Shown in pieces: positions 3,404 through 64,000 of a stretch of 64,000 nt of DNA (positions are counted from its first letter, which is position 1; every line of letters begins with the position of its first letter). Location: NCBI GenBank assembly GCA_963692525.1, contig OY829953.1:3908720-3972719 (forward strand), written 5' to 3'. Made by a program: the position numbers and the translations under genes. The stretch is from Opitutales bacterium. GTDB taxonomy: Bacteria; Verrucomicrobiota; Verrucomicrobiia; Opitutales; PNEW01. The notes beneath the pieces are model-generated. The model saw only the letters and a program-made list of their open reading frames with translations. It did no database searches and had not been told where the DNA came from.

Positions 3404-3478
3404 CTTCGTCTTCGTCCTCTTTTTCCACAGCTTGCTATAACACGGACGAAGAGACTGACGTGGACGTAGACGAAGATT
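3404..3478. mobile_element. Shortest family-A element (75 bp, termini only)
   Basis: CTTCGTCTTCGTCC at the left end and GGACGTAGACGAAGATT at the right end are inverted copies. The right 37 nt match the right ends of the 14449-14802 and 26405-26820 elements. It sits 19 nt after the stop of the upstream gene. Confidence 0.55.
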
Positions 3479-3551
3479 AAAAATATAAACTTATTTGGAT
3501 CTTAATTCTTTATTTTATAAATTCGCGCTCTACTATTCGGTTTCAATTCGC

Positions 3552-11714: not shown

Positions 11715-11970
11715 ATTCTTCGTCACCGTCTTCGTCTGCCTTTTCGTCTTTTATTTTTTAGCTGGTTTTAAGTAAAATATTCTTACAATCCAAGGTGGAG
11801 CGGGCTGCGATTCGGCTGAGCTCATCGAAGTCCTGTCCGACATAGCCTTGGCGACGGCTGATCCCTAGCACGCTTCTTCAATTACGACTTTCTCAAACGC
11901 GCTAGGGACAGCGCGTTCCACCTTTATATATTAAAGAATACTTACGATGAGGCAGACGAAGACGAAGATT
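11715..11970. mobile_element. Family-A element, 256 bp, filled form
   Basis: AATTCTTCGTC...CTTCGTC on the left and GACGAAGACGAAGATT on the right. The interior is GGTGGAGCGGGCTG + 54-nt core module + CCCTAGCACGC...GCGCTAGGG hairpin + CAGCGCGTTCCACC. It lies between convergent genes. Confidence 0.6.
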
Positions 11971-14448: not shown

Positions 14449-14802
14449 CTCTTCGTCTGCCTCTTAGTCTTCGTCCCAGACGCCCTAATACTTCATGATT
14501 ATTGTAGCTTAAGATGGAGCGGGCTGCGATTCGGCTGAGCTCATCGAAGTCCTGTCCGACATAGCCTTGGCGACGGCTGATGCATAGCACGCTCCTTCAA
14601 CTACAACTAACTTAAACGCGTTAGGGATCAGCCATCCTGGAGGGCCACGCTCCTGCCTGTCCGACATAGCCTTGGCATCGGCTGATCGTGGCCGTTAATA
14701 ACATTTCAAAGCGGACGCAATGGAATGCGTCCCTCCATTCCTTATAAAATAATAGGATCTCTATAACAGACGAAGAGCCTGACGTGGACAAAGACGAAGA
14801 TT
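14449..14802. mobile_element. Family-A element, 354 bp long form
   Basis: CTCTTCGTCTGC on the left and GACAAAGACGAAGATT on the right. It is nearly colinear with 26405-26820, including the GGAGGG-GGCCACG...CGTGGCC-GGACGCAatggaaTGCGTCC-CTCC module. Confidence 0.6.
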
Positions 14803-14824
14803 AGTAGAGCTGCCGCCTCACCGC

Positions 14825-19130: not shown

Positions 19131-19180
19131 AATCTTCGTCTTCGTCTCGCTGTAATAAGCACAATAGCACGGCAAGGGAA
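19131..19180. repeat. Family-A remnant (left terminus only)
   Basis: AATCTTCGTCTTCGTC followed by sequence resembling the interior of 3404-3478. No right terminus is present. Confidence 0.4.
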
Positions 19181-22541: not shown

Positions 22542-22573
22542 TTTTGACTTTTTGACCTTTTGACTTTTTGACT
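22542..22573 (+). repeat. (TTTTGACY)4 octamer array
   Basis: ttttgact ttttgacc ttttgact ttttgact, ending 8 nt before ATG 22582. It is identical to the array at 34291-34322. Confidence 0.9.
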
Positions 22574-22581
22574 TAACAACA

Positions 22582-23295
22582 ATGTCAACAGTGCTTATAA
22601 CTGGAGCAAACCGCGGAATTGGCCTGGCTTTGGTCAAAGAATTTCTAAAACAAGGTGACCGCGTTATTGCTACCGCTCGTCAACCTGACAAGGCAGATGA
22701 GTTAAATGCATTGAGCAAAACTTACCACGAACCGAATTACACTGTCATTCCAATGGATGTCACAAATGCCGATTCGGTGAATCAGGCTTATTCAAAAATC
22801 GCTCAATCATTTTCCAGCCTCGATATTCTCATAAATAACGCGGGTGTGAATCCTGATTCAAAAGATGAAAAATTTGAAGATATGGACATTGCGCATTTTG
22901 AGATGGCCTTCGATGTTAATGTTGTCGGCGTCGCACGTGTCTCTCGGAGTTTACTTCCGCTCCTCAGAAAAGGTAATGAACCGCGCATCATTAATATTTC
23001 ATCCGGCGCGGGATCAATAGCGATAAAAACTAATTTTAAACTCTACAGTTACAGTACTTCAAAAGCGGCATTAAACATGTTTTCCCGCACATTGGCCGCT
23101 GAATTAAAACCGGAGGAGATAATTGTTGTTGCCCTCAGTCCCGGCTGGGTCAGGACGGATATGGGAGGAGATGACGCTGAGATTTCACCAGAAGAATCGG
23201 CAAATTGCATCGTCAACACCGCTCATCGATTGACGATGGACAATTCAAGCCAGTTTTTTGGTCGTGACGGCAATCAGGACGATTATAATTGGTAA
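22582..23295 (+). CDS. Short-chain dehydrogenase/reductase
   Basis: Contains ITGANRGIGLA, NNAG and YSTSKAA motifs. Confidence 0.85.
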   Translation: MSTVLITGANRGIGLALVKEFLKQGDRVIATARQPDKADELNALSKTYHEPNYTVIPMDVTNADSVNQAYSKIAQSFSSLDILINNAGVNPDSKDEKFEDMDIAHFEMAFDVNVVGVARVSRSLLPLLRKGNEPRIINISSGAGSIAIKTNFKLYSYSTSKAALNMFSRTLAAELKPEEIIVVALSPGWVRTDMGGDDAEISPEESANCIVNTAHRLTMDNSSQFFGRDGNQDDYNW

Positions 23296-26404: not shown

Positions 26405-26820
26405 CTCTTCGTCTTCGCTTGCCACGTCGTAGACTTCTGCGAAGACGGGTATGCCTTCATCGTCTTGTAGGTTACACCTTGATACTTCATAAATATTGTA
26501 GCTTAAGGTGGAGCGGGCTGCGATTCGGCTGAGCTCATCGAAGTCCTGTCCGACATAGCCTTGGCGACAGCTGATCTCAAGCACGCTTCTTCAATTACGA
26601 CATAATTAAACGCGCTAGGGACAGCGCGTTCCACCTTAATATTGCCATAGAAATATGGAGGGCAACGCTCCTGCTTGTCGGCCATAGCCATGGCGTCGGC
26701 TGATCGTGGCCGTTGACAACATTTCAAAGCGGACGCAATGGAATGCGTCCCTCCATTCCTTATAAAATAATAGGATCTCTATAACAGACGAAGAGACTGA
26801 CGGGGACGAAGACGAAGATT
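26405..26820. mobile_element. Family-A element, 416 bp, longest copy
   Basis: CTCTTCGTCTTCGC on the left and GACGAAGACGAAGATT on the right, with all modules present (see findings). ORF-track entries 26285..26584 and 26503..26727 lie inside it and are not credible. Confidence 0.65.
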
Positions 26821-27127
26821 AATAGAATACACACCCCTCCGGGGCTTAGTTAAAGCTCCCCTCGTAACAGGGCAGAAGTGTGCGTGGCTAGTTTTTAATA
26901 GCGCTTCGACCTAAGTATAATCGGAAGAGTGGATGGGTGGATTATTTCCATCAGTCAACATCCAGTCTTCCAAACTTCTATCCATCCACTTTCTTTTATT
27001 ACACCTTCACCCGGATAGCCAGTCCTGGAATAATAAGCACCGAATTACCTCTTATTATATAAAGAAAGAAAGATTCAGGAATAACATGAAAAGTGCCTGA
27101 TATTGTTAACTTAAAATAAATACTGAA

Positions 27128-34108: not shown

Positions 34109-34266
34109 GATGGAACGCGCTGTCCCTAGCGCGTTAGTTATAAGTATTAATAATAGAAGCGCGCTGAGGACCAACATTCGCCAAGGCTATGGCAGGCAGG
34201 ACTTCGATGAGCTCCCTTCGGCATGAGCTCAGGGCCGAATGCAGCCGAATCGCAGCCCGCTCCACC
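34109..34266. repeat. Family-A core in inverted orientation, long-insert variant, no terminal repeats
   Basis: GATGGAACGCGCTGTCCCTAGCGCG ... CGCAGCCCGCTCCACC, carrying the extra TTCGGC/GCCGAA hairpin variant also seen at 63920-63965. Confidence 0.7.
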
Positions 34267-34290: not shown

Positions 34291-34322
34291 TTTTGACTTT
34301 TTGACCTTTTGACTTTTTGACT
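34291..34322 (+). repeat. (TTTTGACY)4 octamer array
   Basis: The same 32-mer as 22542-22573, located 76 nt upstream of ATG 34399. Confidence 0.9.
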
Positions 34323-34398
34323 TTTATCATATTACCCTCGGTTTGAAAAATACCGGGATATATATTTTATTAATAAATATGATGAAGGAGATTAAAGA

Positions 34399-35283: not shown

Positions 35284-35448
35284 ATCTTAATCGTCGAGAT
35301 ACCGAGATGTAATTAACAGGTAATTGAAAAAAATAAAGTTGATGATTCAGGATTCGGGAAGACAGTGATCAGTCGCTTTCGTTGTCTCTGTGGTGAAATT
35401 AAAGTTGCTCGCATTTTGCACTTCTTTGTCATTGCGAAGGTGGAACGC

Positions 35449-35560
35449 GGTGTCCCTACCGCGTTTAATAGTTACATTGAGTTAAGAAGCGCACTGAGAT
35501 CAGCCGTCGCCAAGGCTATGTCGGACAGGACTTCGATGAGCTCAGCCGAATCGCGGCGTG
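35449..35560. repeat. Family-A partial element (inverted orientation, G/C hairpin allele)
   Basis: GGTGGAACGCGGTGTCCCTACCGCG ... ATCAGCCGTCGCCAAGGCTATGTCGGACAGGACTTCGATGAGCTCAGCCGAATCGC. Confidence 0.7.
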
Positions 35561-35632
35561 TTTTATTTTTGACAAAGATTGGGAGGAAGATGTCATTCAA
35601 ACCAAATTCTTATTTTCTTCACCGCATACACG

Positions 35633-35691
35633 CATTTGAGGATATCGGGCTTCGCCCTCGGCACGCTTCACCGCATTCACGCATAACCGCC
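35633..35691 (-). repeat. C unit (GTGCCGAGGGCGAAGCCCGATATCCTCAAATG on the minus strand) with flanking homology
   Basis: It matches 50201-50232 and 59361-59392, and ends 12 nt before ATG 35703. Confidence 0.8.
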
Positions 35692-35702
35692 TATACACAA
35701 CA

Positions 35703-36938
35703 ATGAGTCATTTTAAAAAAGTCTGTCTTGATTGTGAGCGGGAAGAAACCGACCCCATGGCGATGGTTTGCACCAGCTGCTCCGGACTACTCGGGTTTCA
35801 CTATAGTTTCAAAGACGTGAGCTGGGATGATCGTTTTCAACACAATATGTGGCGCTATTGGCCGCTTTTACCGATTAATGATCCCGGTAGCCTCATTACT
35901 CTCGATGAAGGAGGGACTCCCCTCCTATCCACCCGAGCCTATGGCAACCATGAGATTTATGTAAAAGACGAGACGCGAAATCCCACGGGGTCGCACAAGG
36001 ATCGCGCTCTATCAGTGGCCATAAATCATGGGAAAAGTATCGGTGCTGAAGTCACTTATATCGTATCGACGGGAAGCGCGGGCGTTTCCAATGCAGCCTT
36101 ATCGGCTCGTGCCGGGATGCGCAGTGTAATCGTAATGTGCGAGGGCACCCCGGCGGAAAGACTCTATCCCCTCTATATGCTGGGTGCTACTCTTGTGGAA
36201 GTCAGTGGCGATATTGATCCGGTTGTTGATCTAGTCGCTGATATCTGCCGTGAGCATGGACTCTACTCTACTTCCACAAGCAGAAAGACAAATCCCTACC
36301 AAAGCGAGGGGAACAAAACGATTGCCTATGAAATTGTCGAACAATTAGGCCGCGCACCGGATTGGATGGTAGTACCTGTCGGCGGCGGCGGGAGTATCTC
36401 TGGCATTTGGCGGGGGTTTTGTGATCTAAAAAAATTAAATATAATTACCGCATGCCCGAAGATGATCGGCGTGGTTCCACACGATTACAATGCATTGGAA
36501 ATTGCTTTTGATCAGGGCATAGCGAATTGGAATGATGTTTTGGCTATGCCCTTTGAAGATGCTCCACCCTCGGTCCTAGTAAAATTAGCTCACCCTTACC
36601 CCCCTGACCAACTTGAATCACCACGCGCGATAAAAGCCTCAGAGGGCTTTTTTATCTCGGTCACCGATGAAGAAGCGTTGAACGCTCAACAAAAAATCGG
36701 CCATAGTGAGGGTCTGTATATAGAACCTTCGAGCGGCGCTTGCCTCGCGGGGTTAAGTAAATTAGTAGACTCTGGAAAGCTACAGCCTAAAGATAGCGTT
36801 GTCGCGATGATCAGCGGATCCGGTTTCAGAGAGACCGCGACGACTATGGAATGTCGACCGCTAAAGAAACAGTCGACTGATCTAAAAGAGCTGTCAACGA
36901 CGCTCGTAAAAGCGGCGCAAGTGGAAAGCTTGACCTGA
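35703..36938 (+). CDS. Threonine-synthase-like PLP enzyme (Trp-synthase-beta fold) with N-terminal Cys4 ribbon
   Basis: CLDCE...CTSCSG zinc-ribbon-like start, NPTGSHKDR PLP-lysine motif and a GGGGSISG glycine loop. Confidence 0.75.
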   Translation: MSHFKKVCLDCEREETDPMAMVCTSCSGLLGFHYSFKDVSWDDRFQHNMWRYWPLLPINDPGSLITLDEGGTPLLSTRAYGNHEIYVKDETRNPTGSHKDRALSVAINHGKSIGAEVTYIVSTGSAGVSNAALSARAGMRSVIVMCEGTPAERLYPLYMLGATLVEVSGDIDPVVDLVADICREHGLYSTSTSRKTNPYQSEGNKTIAYEIVEQLGRAPDWMVVPVGGGGSISGIWRGFCDLKKLNIITACPKMIGVVPHDYNALEIAFDQGIANWNDVLAMPFEDAPPSVLVKLAHPYPPDQLESPRAIKASEGFFISVTDEEALNAQQKIGHSEGLYIEPSSGACLAGLSKLVDSGKLQPKDSVVAMISGSGFRETATTMECRPLKKQSTDLKELSTTLVKAAQVESLT

Positions 36939-37807: not shown

Positions 37808-37835
37808 ATTTCTCAGCCTGTTTCTTGCAACCCAA

Positions 37836-37995
37836 GGTGGAGCGGGCTGCCTGACCGCCATAGCCTTGGCGTCGGCTGGTTCCCTAGCACGCTTCTTCAT
37901 TTACGACTTCATACAACGCGCCGAAGATCAGCCGTCGCCAAGGCTATATCGGAGAGGACTTCGATGAGCTCAGCCGAATCGCAACACGTTCCACC
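37836..37995. repeat. Family-A core, fully palindromic form with a core module on both arms
   Basis: GGTGGAGCGGGCTGC + CCATAGCCTTGGCGTCGGCTGG + central hairpin + ATCAGCCGTCGCCAAGGCTATATCGG...GAGCTCAGCCGAATCGC + GTTCCACC. Confidence 0.7.
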
Positions 37996-41673: not shown

Positions 41674-41838
41674 GTCAAAAGGTCAAAAAGGGAGGAGCGC
41701 TGATGCGCGTATTAAATTATAAGATAATTAACTTTATACAAGCATTGCTACTTTTTACTGATCACTGATAAATGATTTCTGTCTAGACATCCTGCATCAT
41801 CCAACGTTTTGACCTTTTGACTTTTTGACCTTTTGACT
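41674..41838. repeat. Inverted pair of octamer arrays flanking a 116-bp AT-rich core
   Basis: (GTCAAAAR)2 at 41674-41689 and (TTTTGACY)4 at 41807-41838, lying between convergent genes. Confidence 0.85.
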
Positions 41839-46279: not shown

Positions 46280-46338
46280 CTGGAGGGCCACGCTCCTGCC
46301 TGTCGGCCATAGCCTTGGCGTCGGCTGATCGTGGCCGT
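46280..46338 (+). repeat. Solitary core-in-stem module
   Basis: CTGGAGG-GCCACG-ctcctgcc-TGTCGGCCATAGCCTTGGCGTCGGCTGAT-CGTGGCC-GT, identical in plan to the internal modules at 14638-14696, 26655-26713 and 61319-61378 (inverted). Confidence 0.8.
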
Positions 46339-48770: not shown

Positions 48771-49592
48771 CTACTTATATCGTGACTCCCAGTTTTTGGC
48801 TACACTAAAACATGCTTTAAGTATGCCATCGCATGTCGTTGGAGTGGATTGTACTTCAAGTGTCCTTGAACCCGTAAAATTCAATACTGACAATCTGTCG
48901 ATAAACGCGTCCCAGTCAATGATACCCCTCCCCGGCACCCAGTGCCGATCGCCGTCTCCGTCCGTATCATGCAAATGTAAAGTGAACAATCTATCTGCGG
49001 CCACGTTTAACTGCTGCAGCGGATCATGTCCCGCGAACCTGGCGTGAGTAGTATCGAGACATAAGCCTACATGTTCCCTGGGCATGTCCACTATTAAAGC
49101 TTGCAGTTCTTCCATCGAATGAAAAGGCCTCGATGTCCCGCGATGCGGCAGATTTTCCAATGCCATCTTGATTCCAGCATCAGATGCGCTGTCAACCAAC
49201 GCGAGAATGGATTCTCTAGAATTCGCTGTGCTCGCATTTCGATTTTCTTCGGTATAATCAAGCGAATAGCCATTGACGTGCACAACAACCGATTCAGCTC
49301 CCAGCTCCTTGAACACAATAAACGATCGGGCTATCACTTCAATCGAAGCTTTTCTTTTTTCCTTATTGAGAGAGGCCAAATCGATATCAGTAATTGGGCT
49401 GTGACCGACGCGCATCGAAAGATCCAGGCGCTTCATAAGCGCTTGCACCGCATTCGTCGAGTGCTCGCTTGCATTGAAATGTGGGGGATCCCATAACAAC
49501 TCAATCTCGTTAAAGCCCGCGTTCTTTATCCTTTGGAGACCGGGCTCCAAGTCTTCATCTTGAACAATCAGAGTGCTGATGCCGTAGTGCAT
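48771..49592 (-). CDS. Sugar phosphate isomerase/epimerase (xylose isomerase-like TIM barrel)
   Basis: Contains GFNEIEL, VVVHVNG, MALENLPHRG, LCLDTTHA and TLHLHDTDGDGDRH. Confidence 0.8.
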   Translation of the reverse strand: MHYGISTLIVQDEDLEPGLQRIKNAGFNEIELLWDPPHFNASEHSTNAVQALMKRLDLSMRVGHSPITDIDLASLNKEKRKASIEVIARSFIVFKELGAESVVVHVNGYSLDYTEENRNASTANSRESILALVDSASDAGIKMALENLPHRGTSRPFHSMEELQALIVDMPREHVGLCLDTTHARFAGHDPLQQLNVAADRLFTLHLHDTDGDGDRHWVPGRGIIDWDAFIDRLSVLNFTGSRTLEVQSTPTTCDGILKACFSVAKNWESRYK

Positions 49593-49598
49593 CTATTA

Positions 49599-49674
49599 GT
49601 CAAAAGGTCAAAAAGTCAAAAGGTCAAAAAGGAAATGCGATTAAGCTTTTGACTATTTGACCAGTACCTTTGAC
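49599..49674. repeat. Inverted octamer arrays filling the gap between two cistrons
   Basis: (GTCAAAAR)4 at 49599-49630 starts 6 nt from the ATG (49592, minus strand). The degenerate CTTTTGAC TATTTGAC ... CTTTGACC at 49646-49674 abuts the upstream stop at 49675. Confidence 0.85.
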
Positions 49675-50145: not shown

Positions 50146-50296
50146 GTCAAAAGGTCAAAAAGTCAAAAGGTCAAAAGGATATGCGTGAACGCGATTAAGC
50201 GTACCGAGGGCGAAGCCCGACATCCTCAAATGTGGAAATAACTTTCACCCTTAAACTTTTTGACCTTTTGACCTTTTGACCTTTTGACCTTTTGAC
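50146..50296. repeat. Inverted octamer arrays flanking a C unit
   Basis: (GTCAAAAR)4 at 50146-50177 starts 6 nt from ATG 50139 (minus strand). The C unit is at 50201-50232 and (CTTTTGAC)5 at 50256-50296. A GCGAC aagg GTCGC hairpin follows. Confidence 0.9.
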
Positions 50297-53874: not shown

Positions 53875-54075
53875 CACCCCAGCGGGGTGTAACATTCGTA
53901 GCCCGCAGCGTAAGCTGTGGGTTAAAATATGTGCCATATAAATTAAGCCCCAGCGGGGCGACACAATAACCGTCGAAAGCGATGTTGTGTCGCCCCGCTG
54001 GGGCTCTGAATTATAAAATATCACTCCCACCCACAGCTCACGCTGTGGGCTAAACCTATGCCGCCCCTCCGGGGC
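53875..54075. repeat. Mirror-symmetric array of five hairpins
   Basis: CACCCCagcGGGGTG (53875-89). CCCGCAGC-GTAA-GCTGTGGG (53902-21). A 20-bp perfect stem, GCCCCAGCGGGGCGACACAA / TTGTGTCGCCCCGCTGGGGC (53947-54004). CCCACAGC-TCAC-GCTGTGGG (54030-49). GCCCCtccGGGGC (54063-75). Confidence 0.85.
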
Positions 54076-54206
54076 TGATAGAGTACGTTAAGGATAAGTT
54101 TTAACATCTTCCTTTTTACATTAATTCGTAAGTATCTAACAGTGATGAGGGGGAAGCCGATGACCAAGATAACCGTGATTATACTTTGCCTTAATGCCTT
54201 TTATAA

Positions 54207-59279: not shown

Positions 59280-59535
59280 GTCAAAAAGTCGAAAAGTATA
59301 CGCGTACCGAGGTCGAAGTCCGACATCCTCACATGCGTTTAAGCGGTTATGCGATAAAGAGTGCCGAGGGCGAAGCCCGACATCCTCAAATGGGAATAAG
59401 CGGATACTGCTATGAATTTCCTGCAACACTCTGACCTTCTGGCTTGGAAGATGTCGTTCCGCGAATATGGAACTCGGAACCGGTTCTCTAGCCTTCCTGC
59501 ATAAATCCGCAATCGCATATCGCAAATCGACAATT
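59280..59535. repeat. Mosaic of octamers, two C units, a D unit and AATCCGCAATCG motifs
   Basis: GTCAAAAA GTCGAAAA at 59280-59295, C units at 59304-59335 and 59361-59392, the D unit at 59431-59482, and AATCCGCAATCGCATATCGCAAATCG at 59507-59532. It fills the whole gap between convergent genes. Confidence 0.85.
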
Positions 59536-60500: not shown

Positions 60501-60627
60501 CAGTGGCCCTCCAGAAGGGCTGTTCCAGAGCTCGCTTCTTTAATTACGACAAATCTAACGCGGTAGGGACACCGCGTTCCACCTTGATTTTGTATTATAT
60601 AGACGAAGAGGTAGACGTAGACGAAGC
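60501..60627. repeat. Family-A right half (G/C hairpin allele) with right terminus
   Basis: CAGTGGCCCTCCAG ... AACGCGGTAGGGACACCGCGTTCCACC ... AGACGAAGAGGTAGACGTAGACGAAGC. Confidence 0.65.
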
Positions 60628-61197: not shown

Positions 61198-61545
61198 ATA
61201 ATCTTCGTCTGCGTCTTTAATAAGGCTCCTTAGAAATGGAGGGACGCACGGAGCATGTCGGCCATAGTACCGCAACAGCGAAGACGACGGCTGATTGCGT
61301 CCGTTTGACAAGATGGTTACGGCCACGATCAACCGACGCCAAGGCTATGGCCGACAGGCAGGAGCGTGGCCCTCCAGGCGACGGCTGACCCCAAGCGCGC
61401 TTCTTCATTTACAACTCACTTAAACGCGCTAGGGACCAACCTTCGCCAAGGCTATGGCTGGCAGGACTTCGATGAGCTCAGCCGAATCGCAGCGCGTTCC
61501 ACCATGATATTATAGTTAATGATTGGACAGACGAAGACGAAGATT
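61198..61545. mobile_element. Family-A element, 348 bp, inverted module order, with an extra nested core
   Basis: AATAATCTTCGTCTGCGTC on the left and GACGAAGACGAAGATT on the right. The GGACGCA/TGCGTCC hairpin carries a 47-nt core-like insert in its loop. Confidence 0.6.
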
Positions 61546-63440: not shown

Positions 63441-63484
63441 AACTAAGCTGAATGGTGTTAGGATAGAACGTATGGATTTGTCGT

Positions 63485-63692
63485 ATTAGTCTTCGTCTCT
63501 GGCTAATATAGATTATCTTGCAATCCATGGTGGAGCGGGCTGTCCCTAGCACGCTTCTTCAATTACAACTTAATCAAACGCGCTAGGGACAGCGCGTTCC
63601 ACCTATCTATTCTATTAATAACTGGATGGACGAGGAGGCTGACCCGTCTTCGCAGTAGTCTACGACGTGGCAAGCGCGGACAGAGACGAAGA
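63485..63692. mobile_element. Family-A element, empty form (no core module)
   Basis: ATTAGTCTTCGTC on the left and GACAGAGACGAAGATG on the right. The interior GGTGGAGCGGGCTG-TCCCTAGCACGC ... GCGCTAGGGACAGCGCGTTCCACC is an uninterrupted 26-bp-arm palindrome. Confidence 0.6.
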
Positions 63693-63727: not shown

Positions 63728-63811
63728 CACCCCGGAAGGGGTGAAGGTAAATAGCCAGGGGTTTTAAACCCCTGGTACAATGATTATAATATAAGCGCCC
63801 TGAAGGGGCGC
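63728..63811. repeat. Three GC-rich hairpins
   Basis: CACCCCggaaGGGGTG (63728-43), CCAGGGGTTTtAAACCCCTGG (63755-75) and GCGCCCtgaagGGGCGC (63795-811). The CACCCC...GGGGTG-type first hairpin and overall plan match the 53875-54075 family. Confidence 0.8.
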
Positions 63812-63861
63812 AGGCATTCTGATTACCCTGAAGTTTTGGTTAGAGCGTATGGATTCGTCAT

Positions 63862-64000
63862 ATTAGTCTTCGTCTCTGGCAAATATAGATTATCTTGCAA
63901 TCCATGGTGGAGCGGGCTGCGATTCGGCTGCATTCGGCCCTGAGCTCATGCCGAAGGGAGCTCATCGAAGTCCTGTCCGACATAGCCTTGGCGACGGCTG
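63862..64000. repeat. Family-A element, filled form, truncated by window end
   Basis: The same 85-nt left part as 63456-63542, but GGGCTG is followed by the long core module (CGATTCGGCTGCATTCGGCCCTGAGCTCATGCCGAAGGGAGCTCATCGAAGTCCTGTCCGACATAGCCTTGGCGACGGCTG). Confidence 0.7.

Follow-up and report, generated by a model that had tools for sequence, protein, structure and literature searches.

We explored why a short hairpin at 60557-60583 occurs in two stem versions within the window (the whole 64-kb stretch of Opitutales DNA that was analysed), and whether it is the DNA or the RNA form of this hairpin that matters. The two versions differ by the exchange of a C-G for a G-C pair. A search with CGCGSTAGGGACASCGCG gave seven matches in the window at up to two mismatches, against 0.00 expected from shuffles. 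The C-G version was found as the exact 28-mer AAACGCGCTAGGGACAGCGCGTTCCACC three times, at 11895-11922, 26608-26635 and 63576-63603. The preliminary description had counted five such copies, and the other two proved to be modified: one is inverted at 34109-34136 with two mismatches (TAACG..., TTCCATC), and one exists solely as a hairpin whose halves are set apart by a 60-nt loop (61423-61503, minus strand). Both G-C copies that had been described exist as the exact 27-mer AACGCGGTAGGGACACCGCGTTCCACC, one at 60557-60583 and one inverted at 35439-35465. The positions first given for 11895-11922 and 60557-60583 were correct, whereas several others were shifted by 2-10 nt; the copies placed at 26610-26637, 63585-63612 and 35449-35476 are those listed here at 26608-26635, 63576-63603 and 35439-35465, all by exact search. 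The two versions do differ at stem positions that pair with each other, as had been noted, and their AGGGAC loop is the same. An inversion of the inner segment is ruled out as the origin of the swap because this asymmetric loop is unchanged.

The repeat unit is 27 nt long and consists of GGTGG, an 8-bp stem and a 6-nt loop, with predicted DNA folds of -8.9 to -9.2 kcal/mol. At 60557-60583 the minus strand reads GGTGG + AACGCGGT + GTCCCT + ACCGCGTT. On the plus strand, 60557-60564 pairs with 60571-60578 around the loop at 60565-60570, and the CCACC tail follows at 60579-60583. The pair at the foot of the local stem defines A-type units (AA...TT) and G-type units (AG...CT). The hairpin is not free-standing, and its place in a REP/REPIN family had been missed: it is one arm of a larger inverted doublet, the right-hand end of an element that starts with GGTGGAGCGGGCTG and ends with CAGCGCGTTCCACC. 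At the locus in question the right unit alone is intact. Its partner arm CTCCAGAAGGGCTGTTCCAGAGCTCGCT (60509-60536) has decayed and lost the GGTGG head, and the spacer TCTTTAATTACGAC... follows. The elements in the window are these:

11794-11922, plus strand: complete REPIN, in which a spacer separates a G-type REP (11794-11874; 60-nt loop) from an A-type REP in the C-G state (11896-11922).
14513-14692, plus strand: G-type REP with a 60-nt loop and the head GATGG (14513-14593), then a degenerate A-type remnant and a hairpin of a second family.
26507-26710, plus strand: complete REPIN (26507-26635) with its A-type REP in the C-G state (26609-26635), and a second-family hairpin (26657-26710).
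34109-34266, minus strand: REPIN with an A-type REP (34109-34135; head GATGG, C-G state) and a G-type REP with an 88-nt loop (34158-34266).
35439-35554, minus strand: REPIN with the second G-C copy (A-type REP, 35439-35465); the partner arm carries the long-loop module and has lost the GGTGG head.
37836-37995, plus strand: REPIN with the loop module in both arms; the G-type REP (37836-37893) has a 37-nt loop, and the A-type arm, which ends in AACACGTTCCACC at 37995, holds the module in mirror orientation.
46282-46335, plus strand: isolated second-family hairpin (GGAGG, GCCACG stem and a 33-nt loop holding the CATAGCCTTGGC module).
60509-60556, plus strand: decayed partner arm and spacer of the REPIN in question, aligning to GGTGGAGCGGGCTGTCCCTAGCACGCT + TCTTCAATTACGAC of intact copies.
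60557-60583, minus strand: A-type REP unit of the G-C subfamily, the hairpin in question, recognised by sequence and by a DNA fold that gives an 8-bp hairpin of -8.9 kcal/mol.
61322-61503, minus strand: A-type REP (C-G state, 60-nt loop; 61423-61503) with a degenerate partner, then a second-family hairpin (61322-61375).
63529-63603, plus strand: short canonical REPIN of 75 nt, with a G-type REP (63529-63555), a 21-nt spacer and an A-type REP in the C-G state (63577-63603).
63906-64000, plus strand: start of a further REPIN that is truncated at the window end, by sequence comparison a G-type REP with a long loop.

At least 14 REP units are present in the 64-kb window, spread over 10 intergenic sites. 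Every copy is located between ORFs, and the neighbours that were scanned encode Creatininase, GNAT, GDSL lipase, SDR, PALP and other housekeeping domains or have no Pfam match. The size of the stem-loop (the class has 20-40 nt and stems of 6-13 bp), its intergenic multi-copy occurrence, the tag outside the stem and the subfamilies with complementary stem residues are all those of REPs of the GTAG super-family. A 113-codon ORF with a GTG start at 35365-35706 (plus strand) overlaps the REPIN at 35439-35554 and is probably spurious.

Several other repeats were observed around these elements. About 12 nt just 5' of the GGTGG head of G-type units are conserved as CTTRCAAYCCAW or TTGTAGCTTAA (11782-11793, 26495-26506, 37824-37835, 63517-63528 and 63894-63905), and an 85-nt stretch that is 93% identical at 63458-63542 and 63835-63919 comprises about 70 nt before the head and the first 14 nt of the element. 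This may mean that more than the REPIN is copied, or that insertion is site-specific. Many REPIN clusters have runs of GACGAAGA/TCTTCGTC with a 6-nt period at 30-70 nt from their edges, inverted on the two sides (11717-11750, 11954-11968, 14768-14805, 26786-26822, 60600-60623, 61529-61543 and 63490-63500), and such runs occur also at 3435-3490 and 19133-19147. The copies at 3435, 14759 and 26777 read ...TDEE(T/P)D(V/G)D(V/K/E)DED-stop without a start codon. The runs may belong to a composite repeat of larger size, or gene 3' ends may have them as a motif of their own. A further repeat, the 8-mer TTTTGACY, forms tandem arrays of 4-5 copies each at about seven sites, TTTTGACYTTTTGAC giving 22 matches against 0.01 expected. 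The arrays lie on the plus strand at 22542-22574, 34291-34325, 41807-41838 and 50258-50296 and on the minus strand at 49598-49631 and 50146-50178, with partial arrays at 41674-41688 and 59280-59294 (both minus). Several point toward an ORF start that lies between a few and about 70 nt downstream of them (ATG at 22582, minus-strand starts at 49592 and 50139, and 34399), and the motif is also present in a related MAG locus (L074). These could be promoter or operator arrays, TTGAC resembling a -35 box.

The behaviour of the stem was examined in other genomes. One genome per species was scanned with a query that had N at the two swap positions. The scan returned at least 99 stretches, and those listed came almost all from Verrucomicrobiota MAGs (Opitutaceae/Opitutales, Chthoniobacterales and Udaeobacter). 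Among the matches listed, about 200 units from 36 genomes provided the material for covariation. At the swap pair (5-14), the 198 units from the window and 99 loci among the matches listed were T-A in 144 cases, C-G in 28, G-C in 18, A-T in 2 and non-Watson-Crick in 6, the unpaired intermediates being rare singletons. Counted by genome, again among the matches listed, the T-A state occurred in 33 and the A-T state in two. A second collection was anchored on the loop and the CCACC tail only, leaving the stems unconstrained, and gave 201 units against about nine expected from shuffles. At least five of the six core pairs were formed in 185 of the 201 (all six in 144, five in 41), and the fully paired alternative stems included CGCGTT, CGCGGT, CGCGCT, CGGCTT, CGCGAT, CGCATT, CGCACT and CGCGTG. 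Pair 0-19 was G-C in 103 units, A-T in 79, G-T in 2 and T-A in 1, with none unpaired, and pair -1-20 was A-T in 161 of 185. These two pairs extend the stem, and the hairpin is therefore one of 8 bp; the six pairs first described hold, with two more flanking them.

Covariation across 67 distinct units scored 0.332, compared with 0.164 +/- 0.016 for shuffles (none of 500 reached 0.332) and at most 0.122 for slid partners, and double changes were seen across lineages in seven of the eight stem pairs. The proposal that the paired substitution marks a constrained hairpin is borne out by these data: in about 200 copies the two positions change together almost without exception, six other stem pairs covary as well, and the signal lies above the shuffled background. 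The results support a hairpin that is kept paired by selection or by selective copying. Among the matches listed, the C-G and G-C states coexist only in three related genomes, that of the window and the Opitutales MAGs CBDCNV and CBDANS, whose REP types are also the nearest to those of the window. In the window the two versions form two subfamilies, with copies identical within each. The swap is probably one old event in one lineage, and one of many such replacements in the family. The tag is less variable: among the matches listed the YTCCACC tail was present in 170 of 198 units, and (G)GTGG accompanied essentially all units. A register-shifted subfamily was observed in the Opitutaceae MAG DASXYY (L025, L039, L046 and L054). 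It has a 7-bp stem and a 5-nt loop (GCGCATG GGGAC CATGCGC + TCCACC), so that the loop is one base shorter while the tag and the pairing are kept.

In the intergenic DNA of Opitutales and other Verrucomicrobiota the units occur mostly as inverted doublets, and also singly. Among the matches listed there were 58 doublets, with spacers mostly of 21-52 nt, and each has the make-up of a REPIN, two inverted REPs and a spacer that can form one long hairpin. The 75-nt element at 63529-63603, for instance, is predicted to form a single long hairpin, with folding energies of -46.3 kcal/mol for RNA (z = -9.7) and -25.3 kcal/mol for DNA. When 45 distinct doublets were taken whole, the local hairpins were 88.1% paired with a score of 0.254 and the long-range hairpin 85.8% paired with a score of 0.235. 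The two models come out nearly equal because the palindrome is itself contained in an inverted repeat, which confounds them, and the local model is in addition penalised by the register-shifted DASXYY subfamily. The closing pair, A-type or G-type, differs between the arms in 23 of the 58 doublets, and where the arms differ the local pairs were kept and the inter-arm pairs broken in 43 cases versus 9 of the reverse. About 85 single units stand alone with perfect stems. Some loop changes are compensated between arms (GACCYC with GGGGTC in L019 and L070), and the long hairpin is therefore not irrelevant. Judged at the positions where the arms differ, on which this preference rests, the local hairpin is the better-conserved object.

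We then looked at what accompanies these units in related genomes. A search of all loci for the motif HxH ... YxxNP returned one ORF, in L052. Its product is a Y1_Tnp protein (PF01797; 28.7 bits versus a cut-off of 23), and the gene sits exactly between two doublets. The protein has 196 homologues, to which JGI often gives the name 'REP element-mobilizing transposase RayT'. Among NCBIfam models they match NF047646 (REP-associated tyrosine transposase) best, with scores of 58-78 bits that fall slightly short of the curated cut-off of 80, and their sole PDB match is E. coli TnpArep (4ER8, E = 3.8e-9). Both the HUH motif (PDHxHA) and the tyrosine motif (Y..(x)NP) are invariant in the alignment. 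Seven distinct loci were inspected by hand (L052, L100/L101, L102/L103, L104, L105, L106 and L107), and all were flanked by GGTGG-tagged hairpin doublets. In a metagenome scan with the RAYT alignment, a GGTGG hairpin was present within 300 nt in 80 of 80 RAYT loci, and on both sides in 57 of the 69 with enough flank; the shuffled loci gave four hairpins in total. As these searches were anchored on the GGTGG tag, it is within that frame that the tag is kept at RAYT-flanking REPs with unrelated stems, which vary by lineage and are still paired. The exact window 27-mer GGTGGAACGCGCTGTCCCTAGCGCGTT flanks the RAYT genes of L136, L137 and L142, and in the JACRHS MAG the REP type flanking the RAYT gene (L052) is the same as the dispersed type (L005). 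The relatives of the window thus have what characterises REPIN-RAYT systems, namely a RAYT gene flanked by the REPs that are dispersed in the genome, an HUH motif with a catalytic Tyr in its product and kinship with TnpArep.

REPs can outlive their RAYT. In the 64-kb window no RAYT gene was found by motif regex or by tblastn, which is expected if the gene has one or few copies per genome, as the REPIN literature describes. We propose that the hairpin is very probably the REP of a REP/REPIN system tied to a RAYT transposase, and we infer that the RAYT gene of this genome lies outside the window.

The preliminary description had also pointed to a G opposite a T between the GGTGGAG and TTCCACC arms and had taken it as a hint of structure at the RNA level. 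The G-T opposition was confirmed in every complete element of the window, with GGTGGAG always in the left unit and TTCCACC in the right; the doublets of other genomes are A/A, G/G and A/G. The T or C, however, pairs with the A or G of its own arm, as the counts at pair 0-19 indicate. When a mixed doublet is folded as one long hairpin, each strand contains a G.T as well as a C.A, and the opposition therefore provides no strand information; wobble-type mismatches in the stems were strand-symmetric (9 versus 11). The hint of RNA is unsupported because the position pairs locally and the wobbles are strand-symmetric. On these pairings, the T/C position is the seventh stem pair of each arm and not an inter-arm wobble.

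Regardless of the G-T pair, the hairpin could have been selected as RNA, with repeats in 3' UTRs or intergenic RNA acting as terminators, mRNA stabilisers or processing sites and the swap preserving an RNA stem. We regard this as unlikely. The predicted RNA folds are strong (-46 to -56 kcal/mol), and most window copies are downstream of at least one gene 3' end, in convergent or tandem spacers, but the cluster at 26507-26710 and the isolated hairpin at 46282-46335 are in divergent spacers and the copies occur in both orientations relative to neighbouring genes. RNA roles of REPs have been documented in other bacteria, and Di Nocera et al. suggested transcription on the basis of G-T pairs (PMC3733652), an argument that in the present case is met by the local Watson-Crick pair and by the near equality of wobble-type mismatches on the two strands. 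A T-run following the hairpin was absent on either strand in the element flanks examined. None of the Rfam covariance models placed a family on the elements at the gathering or E-value threshold, and the miRNA-model matches on 63521-63612 were at chance level. Moreover, an RNA function gives no reason for RAYT genes to be always flanked by these units. An RNA role is compatible with the RAYT explanation, and a function as terminator or stabiliser is possible in addition to it, although nothing here requires one. Elsewhere in the window, Acido-Lenti-1 RNA (RF01687) matched above its gathering score at 54030-54076 on the plus strand (44.5 bits, E = 8e-7), and a second match, at 63728-63775 on the minus strand and between two REPINs, is weak (22.2 bits).

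The loops of many units contain additional sequence. In most window copies besides 63529-63603, a module of 37, 60 or 88 nt with CATAGCCTTGGC is placed exactly inside the loop of one or both units. This is the case for the elements at 11794-11922, 26507-26635, 34109-34266 and 37836-37995, for the single units at 14513-14593 (G-type) and 61423-61503 (A-type), whose partners are degenerate, and for the copy at the window end (63906-64000). As a side observation, a conserved module CTGYCNGNCATAGCCTTGGCGNCGGYTG lies exactly within many REP loops, in either arm and in mirror orientation, with an extension of at least 23 nt in the window (11807-11866, 14526-14585, 26520-26579, 34166-34253, 37850-37885, 37914-37981 and 61431-61490); it is also present in loci L008, L009, L018, L047, L058, L059, L064 and L078. 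It could be a complex-loop variant, as in E. coli and Bradyrhizobium REPs, or a nested insertion. A second hairpin family was observed at 14639-14692, 26657-26710 and 46282-46335 on the plus strand and at 61322-61375 on the minus strand, usually beside a GGTGG REPIN. It consists of (T)GGAGG, a GCCACG stem, a 33-nt loop with the CATAGCCTTGGC module and CGTGGC, and probably represents a subfamily that has diverged and had its stem replaced.

These features bear on a broader reading, in which the repeats would be a verrucomicrobial family beyond standard REPINs. Here the pair of local hairpins would be selected rather than the long hairpin, and the arms kept deliberately different, one closed by A-T and the other by G-C, in the way that IS200/IS605 elements differ between left and right end. 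The module, present in the loops of two stem families, might be an independent element that nests in REP loops by targeting them, or might serve the host as a binding site or an RNA. We hold this reading to be quite unlikely.

It could also be argued that the stem is not under selection at all. The swap would then be a mutational by-product of DNA palindromes, arising by template switching or gene conversion between the arms, and the two versions would be lineages identical by descent. Template switching in quasi-palindromes is an established mutational route. The coexistence of C-G with G-C in three related genomes only, among the matches listed, means that the swap is possibly a single event, and the identity of copies within each subfamily agrees with descent from one ancestor. 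This explanation is nevertheless very unlikely. Double changes have affected seven of the eight stem pairs in different lineages, the unpaired intermediates are rare singletons, and the REPs that flank RAYT genes include wholly different stems that are still perfect (CGGCTT/AAGCCG, CCTGCA/TGCAGG and TCGCCGGT/ACCGGCGA). Template switching can explain the origin of a double change, but not why paired forms multiply across more than 30 genomes.

Finally, it is extremely improbable that these are ordinary MITEs of a DDE-type insertion sequence, with GGTGGAGCGGGCTG.../...CAGCGCGTTCCACC as terminal inverted repeats bound as double-stranded DNA and an incidental inner palindrome: the elements are 75-160 nt long, intergenic and bounded by inverted repeats, but target-site duplications are absent at the five complete window copies (flanks AA/TT, AA/TT, AT/TA, AA/AT and TA/TT), the local hairpin is conserved over arm-to-arm identity where the arms differ (43 versus 9), the only consistently adjacent transposase is the Y1/HUH RAYT, and no transposase, DDE or other, was seen among the scanned window neighbours, so that the absent duplications, the conserved local stem and the Y1 association together exclude this origin.

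We propose the following for the REP/REPIN system tied to RAYT. Two inverted REPs with a 21-52-nt spacer would form the REPIN, a non-autonomous element. RAYT, a domesticated Y1/HUH transposase of the IS200/IS605 lineage, is thought to copy REPINs within the genome, and we infer that it mobilises the REPINs described here. Since the repeats belong to a REP/REPIN family tied to RAYT, single-stranded DNA is most likely the level of recognition. On single-stranded DNA each REP may fold into its own local hairpin, and RAYT would recognise the shape of this hairpin together with the adjacent tag, cutting and joining there. Only copies with intact stems would be good substrates, and the copies that multiply would consequently have perfect stems. 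A stem variant could found a new subfamily only after both partners had changed, through two mutations in succession or through a single event of intra-strand template switching. The two versions, C-G and G-C, may be such subfamilies that coexist in one Opitutales lineage.

The finding is real but ordinary: the class of repeats is a known one, and a study of 2013 had already described REPs of Opitutus terrae that have a GTGG tag and subfamilies with complementary stems. This species is highly enriched in GTAG-type REPs, which comprise the families GTAG-17 to GTAG-20 (Di Nocera, De Gregorio & Rocco 2013, PMC3733652). The tag is mutated to GTGG in most O. terrae GTAG-20 units, alternative complementary residues in the stem divide most families into subfamilies, and a loop may be long and complex (PMC3733652). 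The likeness to the repeats studied here, which is one of description and not of compared consensus sequences, includes the same phylum and order-level group, short stem-loops with a 4-nt tag outside the stem (O. terrae GTGG matching (G)GTGG here), an arrangement as singles, head-head or tail-tail dimers and clusters, and the complementary stem subfamilies. In contrast to O. terrae, the organism of the window is a different one, with about 45% G+C and related to the uncultured Opitutales MAGs CBDCNV and CBDANS, and many of its copies have loop modules of 37-88 nt.

REPINs were defined by Bertels and Rainey (2011), who noted compensatory changes (PMC3116915) and proposed that RAYT recognises not the long hairpin but a 'clover' fold, which is less stable and made of local hairpins (PMC3116915). 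The structure of TnpArep bound to a REP hairpin was determined by Messing et al. in 2012 (PMC3479197; 4ER8). The repeats resemble the REPIN-RAYT systems of Pseudomonas and Enterobacteria in their inverted doublets that can form a long hairpin, in the REP-flanked RAYT gene, in the compensatory changes and in the 'clover' alternative, and the proteins have NF047646 as their best match and 4ER8 as their sole PDB match. They differ in that the tag is GGTGG here and GTAG there, the RAYTs fall just below the NCBIfam equivalog cut-off, the doublet arms often differ (23 of 58) and the activity of the present system is a predicted one. With the ends of IS200/IS605 elements (IS608, ISDra2) they share the predicted action of an HUH tyrosine transposase on subterminal imperfect hairpins in single-stranded DNA, and a short sequence beside the hairpin that is predicted to define the cleavage site. 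IS200/IS605 elements, however, are autonomous, with distinct left and right ends and their own tnpA, whereas the elements here are non-autonomous and their transposase gene is separate and apparently immobile.

Nothing here would surprise specialists. The result matters mainly for annotation. The GC-rich hairpins, the covariation and the G opposite T mimic a structured RNA and are instead the footprint of a REP/REPIN-RAYT system, and covariation-based RNA searches in Verrucomicrobiota would flag such repeats by the hundred. The analysis also adds a well-sampled example from outside the proteobacteria, with more than 30 MAGs and 80 RAYT loci. In this family the GGTGG tag is fixed while stems are replaced pair by pair, and the local hairpin is preserved over the long REPIN hairpin. 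The fixed tag and the preserved local hairpin fit a transposase that would read shape and tag on single-stranded DNA.
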